Assembly: GCA_000004695.1 (NCBI GenBank)
Contig: CM000153.2
Location: forward strand, 5,376,001 to 5,440,000
Length of the DNA: 64,000 bases
From: Dictyostelium discoideum
Taxonomy: Eukaryota
Direction: 5' to 3'
The stretch's first letter is position 1; every line of letters starts with the position of its first letter. Of this stretch, positions 6,189 through 60,017 are shown in pieces. A program made the translations under genes and the position numbers. The notes beneath the pieces are model-generated. The model was not told the DNA's origin. It did not search any database and saw nothing but the letters and a program-made list of their open reading frames with translations.

Positions 6189-7827
6189 TTAATTTTCTAA
6201 ATTATCAGATGGAATATTAATTAAATTTATTAATTTTAAACCAATACACCTAATTTTTTCAAATGATATATTTTCAGTTGTATTTATAAATAATTTCCAA
6301 ATTTTTTCAGAATGTTCATTAAAATTATTTGGATAAATAAAAGTTTTCTTTAATTTACATGGTGATTGTTTTGATGAAGATGATGATGATGAAGAAGATG
6401 ACGAAATTGATGGCGAAGATGGTGGTGAATCTAAATAATAACTATCAATTTCTTCTTCTTTTGTAATACATTCTTTTTCCTCTGTTGATATATCATCATC
6501 ATTATTATTATTTGTTGATGTTGTAATTATTGGTATAGTTGATATTGAATTTATTTGTAATGATGATGATGATGATGATGATGTTGTTGTTGTTGAAATT
6601 AATTGATAAGAATAATTTATAACTTTAAAACTAAAATCTTGAACTTTTACAATTAAAGTTGTTGCATATTTATTTTCAATATTTAACATTTCAATTGCTT
6701 TATCAAATAATGATTTCATTAAATCTTCTAAATCTTTTTCATCATATAATTCTTTACAATTTTTTTCTTTACTAATCATAGTTTTCTTTTTATTTATTCT
6801 AAATGATGATTTATTTGGAAAAATGGGTATTGCTAATGCATGTTTAAATAGTAACTCTCTTTGTTCAGGTAAAAGATAATAAAGTTCATATCTATGTTCA
6901 ATAATATCCGATACAAATTCTAGACCCAATGTTTTCAATAACTCTTGTCTAACTTTACCAATACCAGGTAATTTTTTAATTTGAATTGTTTTTATAAATT
7001 CTTGACTATATTGTTTATCTAAATAGAAATATCCATTTGGTTTATTAATTTCACTTGATATCTTTGATAATAATGGTGAACAAGATATACCCATACTACA
7101 TGTTAATGTTGTCTTTTCAAATATATCATTTTGTAATTGATTTGCAACATCAATACCTGTTAAATTTTCATTATCTTTTAAATATTCTGTTATATCAATA
7201 CATCCTTCATCTAATGATGGTGACTTTTTTAAAGAAAAAAAAAAAAAAAAAATAAAAATATTAATATTATTATTTTAAAATTTTAAAAAAATATATATAT
7301 ATACATACAACATAATTTTTATCAAATTTATATAAAATATTTCTAATTATTAAACTAACTTCTCTATATCTATCCATACGTGATGGTAAAATGATTAAAT
7401 GAGGACATAATTTCATTGCTAATAGGCCTGGTAAACCTGAACGTACACCATAGGCTCTTGCTGCATAATTTGAAGTTACTAACATATCAATTGAACCAAC
7501 TGCAACAGGATGACCAATTAATTCTTTATTATCCATTTCTTCAACATTTGCATAGAATGCATCCATATCTATATGAATGAATGTACGTGATTGATCGATT
7601 TTTGAGGTTAATTCTGTTAGATAACTATCAACTTTCTCTTGATATTCTTCAGTATCTGGTATTTCATTCAATTTACTTAAAATTCCTTCTATATATTCTC
7701 TTGTTCTTTTTGAATCCCTTTCTAATTTCTCTTGAAAATGTGTGCCAACTGAAAATTGTTTTAACATTGAATTTATTGATTCAATATCAACTTTTTCCAT
7801 ACCTGCTTTAAATTCTAATGAATTCAT
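6189..7827 (-). CDS. polK: DNA polymerase kappa, a Y-family DinB/ImpB-type polymerase. complement(join(6189..7223,7308..7827)).
   Basis: Exon 1 carries KAGMEKVDIESIN, FIHIDMDAFYANVE and AVGS..MLVTSNYAARAYGVRSGLPG, the Pol kappa/DinB catalytic core. A GTATGT donor follows ...KNYV, and the acceptor is AAAAAG|TCACCATCATTAGATGAAGG, giving SPSLDEGCIDITEYL (the conserved MSLDEAYLNIT region). The same frame continues through TLTCSMGISCSPLLSKISSEINKPNGYF and ends near the little-finger motif IRCIGLKL. No C-terminal zinc-finger extension is present. Confidence 0.85.
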
Positions 7828-8036: not shown

Positions 8037-8364
8037 ATAATTTGTTTTTTTTTAGGAAATTGATAATTTCAAAATAATTTTTTGAAAAATATCTTTTTTT
8101 TTTTTTTAATTTTTCTGATCATTTTGGATATGCTTGTACTTAAGTAATAGACTATTTTTTTTTTTTTTTTAATTTAAAATTCTATTAATAAAACTTATCC
8201 TTAAAAGTTTGTTTTAACAAAATAAAAAAAAAATAAAAAAAATAAATATAGAAAAAATATTAAAAAATAATAAAAAAATAATAAAAAAATAAAAAAAATA
8301 AAAGTTACATAAAGAAACAAAATATTTGATTTTATTTTATTATTATATATTTTTTTTTTTTTAA

Positions 8365-8550
8365 AAAATTATAATGGTGGACGTTAGATAGAGTCAGACA
8401 GTCATAACAAAGGTGCTACCCTTTGTATGACACTTATAAACATGTTTGGATGTTCTTAAAGTTTTTTGATCATCATTAAGTTGTAATTTTATGTATTGAA
8501 TGATTCCGTAGAAAACATTCTATAGATAAGAATTACCTACTAATTGTCGA
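8365..8550 (-). ncRNA. U3 (D2-like) box C/D snoRNA candidate, copy 1, about 185 nt.
   Basis: The minus-strand transcript would begin about 60 nt downstream of a DUSE motif. It contains a box-A-like UAGGUAAUUCUUAUCUAUAGAAUG (compare the yeast U3 UAGGAUCAUUUCUAUAGGAAUCG), a box C AAUGAUGAUCA, and a 3' box D GUCUGA. It ends in a T-run. A perfect 11-bp hairpin (GUCAUACAAAGG...CCUUUGUAUGAC) lies near the 3' end. A second copy sits 1.45 kb away, consistent with U3/D2 being a dispersed multigene family in Dictyostelium. Identified by memory of conserved boxes, not by a search. Confidence 0.5.
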
Positions 8551-8604
8551 ATTGGATACATTCACACTTTTTTTCAAAATACTGATCCCCTATAGAGTTT
8601 ATAT

Positions 8605-8612
8605 TTGTGGGA
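8605..8612 (-). promoter_or_regulatory. DUSE (Dictyostelium upstream sequence element) TCCCACAA, about 60 nt upstream of U3-like copy 1.
   Basis: Plus-strand ttgtggga is the reverse complement of TCCCACAA, matching the [AT]CCCA[CT]AA consensus reported upstream of Dictyostelium ncRNA genes. The similarity between the two repeat copies ends exactly at this motif. Confidence 0.45.
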
Positions 8613-9283
8613 TATAATAAAAAAAGTTGCTAAAAAAAATGGGAAAAAAAAAAAATTTAAAAAAAATGATTTATTTGAAAATTTTCTATATTTAGAATCA
8701 TAGGTTTGATGTAATAATAAACCCCCATGGGTATGCAAACATTACAATAAATTAAATAAAGAAAAAAAAAAAATATAAAAAAAAAAAGTTACTTTATTTC
8801 TATTTAAAAACACAAAATTTTTAATTGTCACCCATGCCAAATCCAATAATTAAAAAAAAAAAAAAAATAATTAAAAAAAAAATAAATCTTTTTAATTTTT
8901 TATTTTAGTTGTAACAAAATAAATAAATAAATAAATAAATAAATATATAAATATATAAATGACAAAAAAAAAAACATACATTTTATAAATTTCTTAACAT
9001 ACATTAATACTTTTAATTTCAAAAAAAAAAAAATAAAAAAAAAATACCAAATCGGGCAATCACACCCAGATTTTCCACTTACCCAACATCAGTAAGTATT
9101 ACAATATATAAACTAATTGTACCATAGGTTTTATTACTGACCAAATTATAATTTCAGAGTTAATTTTTTAAATTGTCATCAAATAGATCATTTAGCATTT
9201 TTTTACAATGACAATTTTGGAATTGTTGAAGGTGATGTATTATCAAACAAAAGAACAAAATTTCATCAATGGATTACTTGTCA

Positions 9284-9421
9284 CCAACCAATCCAACTCC
9301 TTCTTCCATATACAGAGGAACCACAACAACTACAACACCCACCACAACCACCACAACCATTCCAAAAACCAGCTATTAAAATAGGTGCTAAAAAGCCAGC
9401 TGCCAATTGAACATATACACT
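9284..9421 (-). other. Candidate terminal exon encoding a hydrophobic, Gly/Cys-rich peptide with no ATG (...FLAPILIAGFWNGCGGCGGCCSCCGSSVYGRRSWIGW*).
   Basis: A stop-to-stop minus-strand frame in an island between the two U3-like copies that is less AT-rich than its surroundings. It has a TM-like segment followed by a G/C-rich tail, reminiscent of Dictyostelium hssA/2C/7E-type or CYSTM-like small proteins. A TTTGAAG acceptor lies at its 5' side, and no upstream ATG exon was found. Confidence 0.2.
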
Positions 9422-9805
9422 TCAAATACATACATATATATACAAACACCAAAATATAAAAATACCAATGATAATTACAAGTTTAAGTATTTGCAATTTA
9501 TTGGTTTTAAATAAAAATAAAGATATTCAATGTTTGTAAAAATTCAAACCCTTCGTGTTTCAAAAACTTTTTTTCTTTTGTTTGATGAATTGCATCATAT
9601 TATATTGTTTAAACATCCAATTAAAAATATTTTACTTAAAAATACAATGTTCACATTGTGTTGAATTTAATAATAAATACGAAATAATGATCGATAATGA
9701 AGTTGTATTAAATACAAATCAAATATCTATTGATAAAAAAAAATGAAAATAAGAAAATAAAAAAAATAAAGAAACAATATGTTTATTTTAATTTTTTTTT
9801 TTTTT

Positions 9806-9989
9806 AAAAATTATAATGGTGGACTTTAGATAGTCAGACAGTCATAACAAAGGTGCTACCCTTTGTATGACACTTATAAACATGTTTGGATGTTCTTAAA
9901 GTTTTTGGTCATCATTAAGTTGTAATTTTATGTATTGAATGATTCCGTAGAAAACATTCTATAGATAAGAATTACCTACTAATTGTCGA
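9806..9989 (-). ncRNA. U3 (D2-like) snoRNA candidate, copy 2, a variant that may be a pseudogene.
   Basis: About 95% identical to copy 1 over roughly 250 bp (9806..10055 versus 8361..8620), including the DUSE. Box C is altered (UGAUGACCA instead of UGAUGAUCA), there is a 3-nt deletion near the 3' hairpin, and the -10..-40 promoter region has diverged. Confidence 0.4.
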
Positions 9990-10041
9990 ATTGTATAATT
10001 ATACACTTTTTTTCAAAATACTAATTCCCTATAGTTTATAT

Positions 10042-10049
10042 TTGTGGGA
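10042..10049 (-). promoter_or_regulatory. DUSE TCCCACAA upstream of U3-like copy 2.
   Basis: Plus ttgtggga; same position relative to the repeat as in copy 1. Confidence 0.4.
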
Positions 10050-10289
10050 CTTGTATAAAAATTAAAAAAAAAAATAAATAAAAAAAAAAAAAAAAAACGA
10101 AAAAAAAAAAACGAATGAAATCATCATGTAAATTACCGATTTCATGTAAGAAAAAAAAAAAAAAATTGATTATTAAATAATGTTTAGATTTCCACTTTTT
10201 TATTTTAAGTTATCGTATATATATTTGTTAATTAATTAATTAATTAATAATTGAAAATGTGTTAGAAATTTTAATTCTATTCAAAATTT

Positions 10290-10914: not shown

Positions 10915-10960
10915 TTGTGAGAGTGTGCGTGTGTGTGTGTGTGTTTTTTTGTGGGTATAA
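10915..10960. promoter_or_regulatory. G/T-rich G-box/CAE-like element.
   Basis: tgtgagagtgtgcgtgtgtgtgtgtgtgttttttgtgggtat, about 1.15 kb upstream of the 12100 gene. It resembles the GBF-binding G-box / CA-rich elements of developmentally regulated Dictyostelium promoters. Confidence 0.25.
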
Positions 10961-59308: not shown

Positions 59309-59390
59309 GTAAGCTTGCCCGAGCTGGTCTAAGGGGTTGCATTAAGGCTGCAATATCATTGATACAAGGGTTCGAATCCCTTAGCTTACA
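59309..59390 (+). tRNA. tRNA-Leu, anticodon AAG, type II, 82 nt, copy 1.
   Basis: Acceptor stem GTAAGCT/AGCTTAC. Anticodon stem TTGCA/TGCAA with loop TTAAGGC (anticodon AAG, G37). A variable arm, and a T-arm AAGGGTTCGAATCCCTT. Discriminator A. Confidence 0.85.
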
Positions 59391-59935: not shown

Positions 59936-60017
59936 GTAAGCTTGCCCGAGCTGGTCTAAGGGGTTGCATTAAGGCTGCAATATCATTGATACAAGGGTTC
60001 GAATCCCTTAGCTTACA
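59936..60017 (+). tRNA. tRNA-Leu(AAG), copy 2, identical to copy 1.
   Basis: Same 82-nt sequence. The duplicated unit is about 140 bp: about 20 bp of 5' flank, the tRNA, and the ex-B box. Confidence 0.85.

Follow-up and report, generated by a model that had tools for sequence, protein, structure and literature searches.

Two catalogued box C/D RNA genes of Dictyostelium discoideum with a conserved, promoter-defined 5' domain of proposed U8-like character

U3 is a universal small nucleolar RNA (snoRNA) of the box C/D class, and U8, its counterpart for the large ribosomal subunit (LSU), is mutated in a human leukoencephalopathy. The present analysis compares with these RNAs, and with their described relatives, a pair of box C/D RNA genes on the minus strand of Dictyostelium discoideum chromosome 4, within a stretch of 64,000 nt (assembly GCA_000004695.1, contig CM000153.2, positions 5,376,001 to 5,440,000; the whole stretch is called the window). 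U8 is required for maturation of 5.8S and 28S rRNA and reports of it are confined to vertebrates (Langhendries 2016). It had not been found outside metazoans before a candidate from Tetrahymena, TtnuCD26, was proposed as the first such U8 because its 5' terminus can pair with that of 26S rRNA and its abundance equals that of U3 (Andersen and Nielsen, 2012, PMC3273799). The Dictyostelium U3, D2, is 210 nt long (V00190, nt 62-271) and contains boxes GAC, A', A, C', B, C and D (Charette and Gray, 2009).

Closest to the locus are two orphan box C/D snoRNAs on AX4 chromosome 4 (Diesend et al., 2022, Sci Rep 12:1952, PMC8817022, Tables S4/S5): OR4, at 5384392-5384479 (minus strand, 88 nt, GC 31.82%, boxes AUGAUGA/CUGA, C-D gap 72), and OR3, at 5385832-5385918 (minus strand, 87 nt, GC 33.33%, C-D gap 71). 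Both are listed as validated by RNA-seq and expressed (read count >100, 'distinct 5' end'), and both are reported without an rRNA methylation target. Their lengths in Table S5 are snoScan boundaries (the boxes plus ~5 nt), neither of the two having been subjected to primer extension, and the published entries comprise the C-to-D core only, without promoter, 5' domain, 3' tail or function (Diesend et al., 2022). Copy 1 of the present pair is OR4 and copy 2 is OR3, since coordinates, strand, length, GC content and C-D gap all coincide with the published values: a position in the window plus 5,376,000, or 84×64,000, gives the position on AX4 chromosome 4, and 8392-8479 and 9832-9918 reproduce the lengths, GC contents, gaps and strand of OR4 and OR3, with start and end spacings of 1440 and 1439. 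D. discoideum assemblies also encode a protein of the window. The genes are thus already catalogued, as cores of 87-88 nt without function. What is new is a conserved, promoter-defined 5' domain and its U8-like character: in contrast to the published cores, a conserved unit of 177 nt is found here, headed by a DUSE (Dictyostelium upstream sequence element) and most constrained in its 5' domain.

The gene pair and its promoters

The minus strand carries two direct copies of one unit, running from 8612 to ~8363 and from 10049 to ~9806, with a start-to-start spacing of 1439-1442 bp (regions inspected, minus strand: 8340-8660 and 9780-10100). In the pairwise alignment, likeness between the copies begins at the DUSE, TCCCACAA, spans ~250 nt and passes through a T-run slightly into the next A-run; on the upstream side of the motif the copies show no relation, with 7 of 13 columns differing. 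Conservation was read from a five-sequence alignment comprising the two AX4 copies, the two of a second D. discoideum strain (GCA_054859385.1) and one of D. cf. discoideum (GCA_054859235.1). The orthologous loci were reached via the neighbouring gene GNL3; a fragment of the gene for the IMS-domain DNA polymerase gave almost nothing as a query.

A preliminary description of this DNA, made from the sequence alone, had recognized two direct repeats of about 250 nt whose likeness starts exactly at the DUSE, and it was right in this and in taking boxes C and D as genuine. Both copies have AUGAUGA and CUGA, which are invariant in 5/5 aligned sequences and, as a RUGAUGA box C and a CUGA box D, are able to form a kink-turn (k-turn); the C-D gap is 72 nt in copy 1 and 71 nt in copy 2, and expression is given by the RNA-seq classifier score of Diesend et al. 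(2022). Several details of that description need revision. The 3' hairpin, described as a perfect one of 11 bp, has 6 bp, a bulged U and 6 bp (GUCAUACAAAGG/GUAGCA/CCUUUGUUAUGAC), and the alleged box C substitution of copy 2 (UGAUGAcC) sits just 3' of an intact AUGAUGA, outside the core. In place of the single 3-nt indel counted for copy 2 there are three indels: one of 1 nt in the A-run and two of 2 nt each, namely the CU that follows box D and one in the promoter. For the unit, given as ~185 nt and ending in a T-run, the conserved RNA block measures 177 nt. D. cf. discoideum lacks the T-run, which is T4-T6 in the D. discoideum copies, and this speaks against its being a conserved Pol III terminator. 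The features of the pair are as follows.

8605-8612, minus strand: DUSE TCCCACAA of copy 1 (OR4), invariant in 5/5 sequences, its first base 59 nt upstream of the conserved RNA block
8564-8583, minus strand (copy 2: ~10003-10022): promoter-proximal element AGTATTTTGAAAAAAAGTGT of copy 1, from the five-sequence alignment
8377-8553, minus strand: conserved RNA unit of copy 1, 177 nt, AAUUCGAC...GUCCAC, from the five-sequence alignment; includes the OR4 core 8392-8479
8521-8544, minus strand: 5' element AUUAGUAGGUAAUUCUUAUCUAUA of copy 1, resembling the 5' end of TtnuCD26/U8 and predicted to pair with the LSU 5' region (RF02302 match, RNAduplex)
8483-8536, minus strand: predicted long AU-rich 5' hairpin of copy 1, an alternative fold of the 5' domain, all pairs invariant
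8470-8476, minus strand: box C of copy 1, AUGAUGA
8432-8462, minus strand: hairpin A of copy 1, between boxes C and D, sole substitution in the loop
8401-8431, minus strand: hairpin B of copy 1, loop GUAGCA, 6 bp + bulged U + 6 bp
8394-8397, minus strand: box D of copy 1, CUGA
8377-8393, minus strand: conserved 3' tail of copy 1; nt 8380-8391 predicted to pair with 8537-8548 (terminal stem)
8363-8368, minus strand: T-run downstream of copy 1, T6
10042-10049, minus strand: DUSE TCCCACAA of copy 2 (OR3), invariant in the alignment
9819-9992, minus strand: conserved RNA unit of copy 2, 174 nt; includes the OR3 core 9832-9918
9909-9915, 9834-9837, 9841-9871 and 9960-9983, minus strand: box C, box D, hairpin B and 5' element of copy 2
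9806-9810, minus strand: T-run downstream of copy 2, T5

TCCCACAA matches the pattern [AT]CCCA[CT]AA. In either copy 59 nt separate its first base from the conserved block, a distance that fits the ~60-63 nt described between DUSE and start for Dictyostelium non-coding RNA genes. As had been proposed, the copies are independently promoted snoRNA genes, with a DUSE ~60 nt upstream of the putative start in each and invariant in all five sequences. The motif WCCCAYAA alone is not enriched within the window (8 found, 9.25 expected); its other matches, at 10949, 17844, 20177, 21667, 41520 and 42881, occur at chance frequency, and nothing RNA-like lies 60 nt downstream of any of these six. Between DUSE and RNA, AGTATTTTGAAAAAAAGTGT is nearly invariant in the five sequences, whereas the 10 nt immediately upstream of the RNA vary, and AGTATTTTGAAAAAAAGTGT may serve DUSE genes as a core promoter or a TATA-like element. 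A TGTG-box arrangement was rejected: GTGTG lies 46 nt from the DUSE instead of 60 and is not conserved.

Conservation, fold and history of the copies

Along the alignment, the DUSE has 0/8 variable columns, the interval from DUSE to start 17/52, the 5' domain (8477-8553) 1/77, the C-to-D core 7/83, the 3' tail (8377-8393) 3/17 and the 3' flank 16/32. The 77-nt 5' domain, which lies outside the published annotation, is therefore the most constrained part of the unit. RNAalifold predicts four elements, namely a terminal stem (nt 6-17 with the 3' tail), the long 5' hairpin, hairpin A and hairpin B, and leaves boxes C and D single-stranded. Every variable site of the RNA is unpaired in this fold or keeps its pair as a wobble: hairpin B has three one-sided changes, all of which maintain pairing (in two, C-G becomes U·G; in the third, A-U becomes G·U), and the variable sites of the terminal stem and 3' tail fall in bulges or linkers. 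As no double compensatory change occurs, support for the structure is modest, and the 5' hairpin is neither supported nor contradicted by covariation because all its pairs are invariant. Because hairpin B ties up the sequence upstream of box D, there is no guide element, in agreement with the absence of an rRNA methylation target in Diesend et al. (2022).

D. cf. discoideum has one copy at the syntenic locus (7305-7565 of the fetched locus, GCA_054859235.1), and the duplication is thus either specific to D. discoideum or followed by loss of one copy. The upstream flank of this single gene is that of copy 1, and the states of its RNA body (GACC, no CU insert) are those of copy 2. These two states of copy 2, being common to the D. 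cf. discoideum gene, look ancestral, and the peculiarities of copy 1 derived. Together with the listing of both copies as expressed (OR3 and OR4), this contradicts the suggestion that copy 2 is decaying. Further away, the syntenic contig of D. purpureum, on which no copy lies, breaks off 1 kb upstream of the gene for the IMS-domain polymerase; in P. violaceum, T. lacteum, H. album and C. fasciculata there is neither synteny nor a match by BLAST, nhmmer or motif. The pattern AGTAGGTAATYCTTAYCTATA, which covers the D. discoideum and Tetrahymena variants, has no match in metagenomes or prokaryotic genome assemblies.

Within D. discoideum, there may be relatives on other chromosomes. The CD37 primer GACAGTCATGACAAAGGTGCT (Diesend et al., 2022, Table S2) is identical at 20 of 21 positions to 8396-8416 and 9836-9856 (+ strand), that is, in hairpin B, and judged by this primer CD37 probably shares hairpin B with OR3 and OR4. 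CD37 (AX4 chr1:3858279-3858361), whose boxes AUGAUUA/AUGA are weak, has been assigned 17S-Gm1266, and OR1 (chr2:4524799-4524900) and OR5 (chr2:6880357-6880444) have a C-D gap of 71 nt, as OR3 (Diesend et al., 2022, PMC8817022). The primer identity and the equal C-D gap suggest that OR3/OR4, CD37, OR1 and OR5 may form a small dispersed family, possibly of 4-5 members. A methylation guide for 17S-Gm1266 in the manner of CD37 was tried at the present locus and rejected: UAAGAAC alone matches and no D' box is in register.

The 5' domain and its likeness to TtnuCD26 and U8

The only Rfam family that touches the 5' domain in a way that makes sense at the level of sequence is TtnuCD26 (RF02302), matched over model positions 1-30 with 17.5 bits and E=2.5. 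The searches, run at the gathering score on the window and at E≤10 on 2 kb, 206 nt and the 113-nt 3' domain, returned no U3, U8 or DdR family and, apart from the weak TtnuCD26 match, only generic box C matches. The 5' 24-mer of TtnuCD26 and the 5' element of the present RNAs are identical at 21/24 positions; the three differences are all C→U and would keep pairing to G. Allowing ≤3 mismatches, the TtnuCD26 24-mer is found within the window exactly twice, once in each copy, with 0 matches in 100 shuffles. In architecture the RNAs agree with the U8/TtnuCD26 type, with an internal box C, a box D near the 3' end, no methylation guide and a promoter of their own; a long 5' domain of the U3/U8 type had been anticipated, and 77 nt do precede box C.

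With RNAduplex, the 5' element, TtnuCD26 and human U8 all settle on one LSU site, AGGUAGGAUUACCCGCUGA, at ~nt 15-35 of a generic LSU rather than of D. discoideum 26S rRNA. The duplex reaches -18.6 kcal/mol for D. discoideum nt 11-30 (6/500 shuffles as good), -26.1 kcal/mol for TtnuCD26 (0/300) and -26.9 kcal/mol for human U8 (3/300). The site, also written AGGUA..UACCCGCUGA, is present in real eukaryotic LSU 5' ends from prokaryotic assemblies.

Such 5' ends of eukaryotic LSU rDNA occur at 73 loci in prokaryotic assemblies or metagenome-assembled genomes (MAGs) of the GTDB collection and are presumably contaminants (one, JAFDXO010000130.1, is labelled a Bacteroidetes MAG); some have a very AT-rich internal transcribed spacer (ITS) 2, of ~18-20% GC. 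The CD7 and CD13 segments specific to D. discoideum occur in none of the 73. In metagenomes, a 17-mer deduced from the primer for CD7 (ATTTGTGCGAACACGGA) gave 49 chance matches, none with an LSU motif, and two matches in a viral collection were uninformative. Elsewhere in the window, ARAGORN identifies two tRNA-Leu(AAG) genes, 59309-59390 and 59936-60017 (+), 627 bp apart, and the Rfam gathering search listed the first only.

Readings of the 5' domain and comparison with known systems

The reading that we prefer, with moderate confidence, is that the locus encodes DUSE-driven, 5'-extended box C/D RNAs of ~175 nt, whose 5' domain acts in a U8-like manner on the 5' end of pre-26S rRNA. The functional RNA is most likely longer than the 87-88 nt annotation and is probably capped. 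That the mature RNA keeps the 5' domain is inferred, as are its rRNA target and its function; the U8-like role is suggested by the first 24 nt, which match the 5' ends of TtnuCD26 and vertebrate U8 and could pair with the LSU. The two repeats are separate genes, each with its own DUSE promoter ~60 nt upstream, and each RNA would consist of the 77-nt 5' domain, box C, two plain hairpins without a guide element, box D and a 17-nt tail pairing with the 5' end. Boxes C and D would be the platform for the usual core set of proteins (a Snu13-type k-turn binder, Nop56/58 and fibrillarin), and the 5' domain would perform the specific work by pairing with LSU rRNA at ~nt 15-35 (AGGUAGGAUUACCCGCUGA), making the RNA a U8-like chaperone of the pre-26S 5' end during 5.8S/26S maturation, not a U3. 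The stronger claim, that OR3 and OR4 are amoebozoan orthologues of U8, which would then most likely stem from the last eukaryotic common ancestor and not be an animal invention, is possible and is put forward tentatively.

Several observations weigh against this reading. The U8 model RF00096 is unmatched, the RF02302 score of 17.5 bits compares with a gathering score of 90 and concerns the 5' 27 nt only, and the 113-nt 3' domain matches nothing specific in Rfam at E≤10. A mismatch and four G·U pairs enter into the LSU duplex, whose advantage over shuffles is modest; complementarity was measured on a generic LSU, not on D. discoideum 26S rRNA (FR733594.1). No homologue came to light beyond the D. 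discoideum complex, be it at the syntenic loci of D. purpureum and P. violaceum, in metagenomes or in prokaryotic assemblies, and hence there is no covariation evidence for the 5' domain. Finally, a 'distinct 5' end' was among the requirements of Diesend et al. (2022, PMC8817022), who give the RNAs as 87-88 nt; should this 5' end be real, the mature RNA has lost the 5' domain.

The last point leads to the view that these are ordinary orphan box C/D snoRNAs of ~88 nt, as annotated, and that the 5' 75 nt are a precursor leader removed after processing, the long hairpin and the external stem of 5' and 3' ends serving only RNase III/exonuclease processing and assembly of the small nucleolar ribonucleoprotein. 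Such a leader would account for the listed lengths with their full expression score, for which a distinct 5' end is required, and for a 5' domain that folds as a 27-bp AU-rich hairpin and whose ends pair; Diesend et al. (2022) also note complementary stretches flanking snoRNAs without a terminal stem. Yet the 5' part is more conserved (1/77 columns) than the annotated core (7/83), loops and bulges included, and a mere processing hairpin should tolerate change. The lengths of Table S5, as noted above, are snoScan boundaries without primer extension for OR3/OR4, knockout of the RNase III gene drnB had no effect on OR3/OR4, and the sequence match to TtnuCD26/U8 would have to be coincidence. On balance we regard a leader, the main rival, as unlikely. 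A third possibility is a 5'-extended box C/D RNA that is unrelated to U8 and whose 5' domain acts on another target, such as the 5' external transcribed spacer (ETS), an ITS, a small nuclear RNA (snRNA) or an mRNA, or binds a protein. The weakness of the family evidence despite strong constraint speaks for it, as do the modest LSU duplex and the hairpin B probably shared with CD37 (primer 20/21), whose assignment to 17S-Gm1266 means that the family may be functionally diverse. This alternative is quite unlikely: the best and only sequence relative is a U8 candidate, which matches at the same position, the 5' end, and the three differences from TtnuCD26 preserve pairing with the LSU site. Two further identities were rejected, a spliceosomal snRNA (no Rfam match, no Sm site) and a Class I RNA (no CCTTACAG motif within the window).

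The preliminary description had proposed U3 (D2) genes. Under this reading, early processing of the small subunit would be directed by pairing of the 5' domain with 18S rRNA and the 5' ETS. Several features recall U3: ~75 nt precede UGAUGA, the RNA begins with UUCGAC, which is GAC box-like, UCUAUAG is present, CAACUU..UGAUGA resembles the C' context of yeast U3, and several copies are possible (OR1 and OR5 have an equal C-D gap), recalling the 'dispersed multigene family' of D2. U3 box A has the consensus GGAUCAUUUCUAUAG, whose core GGAUCA pairs with the universal UGAUCC of 18S rRNA. Neither copy matches GGAUCAUUUCUAUAG within 3 mismatches; the locus reads AGGUAAUUCUUAUCUAUAG, with only UCUAUAG in common, and GGAUCA is absent. 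What had been called box A-like is really the stretch of likeness to the 5' end of TtnuCD26, the U8 candidate from Tetrahymena. A second k-turn, formed by boxes B/C, is the Rrp9/U3-55K site of U3 besides C'/D. This k-turn is missing here, as there is one UGAUGA and one CUGA only, and in the predicted fold two ordinary hairpins fill the C-D interval where a box B/C architecture had been expected. The U3 families RF00012 (U3), RF01846 (Fungi_U3) and RF01847 (Plant_U3) are unmatched at the gathering score in the whole window and at E≤10 in 2 kb and in 206 nt, and the conserved block is 177 nt long against 210 nt for D2. A U3 identity is accordingly highly improbable. Pairing of the 5' domain with the universal 18S 5' end is no better than that of shuffles (104/300 as good), but the yeast U3 positive control is itself weak, at 35/300, which takes weight from this comparison. 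A U3 box A was also sought in the promoter of copy 1, where CUAUAGGGGAUCAG (8584-8597, minus strand), with GGGGATCAG, resembles its core; the segment is not conserved in copy 2, the second strain or D. cf. discoideum, so that the resemblance is one of chance.

If the 5' domain is functional and U8-like, two 'function-less' snoRNAs gain a testable role, and U8, stated to be known only from vertebrates or metazoans plus one unconfirmed ciliate candidate, becomes an ancient eukaryotic RNA. It would also follow that snoRNA catalogues whose candidates are trimmed to boxes C and D lose what is functional in processing snoRNAs and, should OR3/OR4 be U8 orthologues, that the function of SNORD118 could be modelled in D. 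discoideum, which is genetically tractable. With a 5' domain that is a leader and nothing more, the locus holds an ordinary pair of snoRNA genes that has been catalogued before.

Compared with the known systems, the RNAs share with U3 a 5' domain of ~75 nt before UGAUGA, a box D close to the 3' terminus, a promoter of their own of the snRNA type and the short motifs CGAC and UCUAUAG, but differ in lacking a GGAUCA box A core, a box B/C and a model match, and in length (177 nt, D2 210 nt). TtnuCD26 differs in being shorter (98-108 nt, ~177 nt here), the rest of the RF02302 model does not align, and the D. discoideum element pairs with the generic LSU through G·U pairs. Both are long box C/D RNAs without guide function, with a 5' end that RNAduplex places on the LSU 5' region, and they agree in 21/24 nt at the 5' terminus. 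Vertebrate U8/SNORD118 (RF00096), whose covariance model finds no match here and whose LSm-binding loop and hairpin layout are not recognizable, is likewise independently transcribed, with an internal box C and a 3' box D. When the human sequence is placed beside the D. discoideum RNAs, a 5' hairpin UCAG..GG..UAAUCCUUACCU stands against UUAG..GG..UAAUUCUUAUCU, and RNAduplex assigns to both a common LSU site, CCCGCUGA, together with the hairpin upstream of it.

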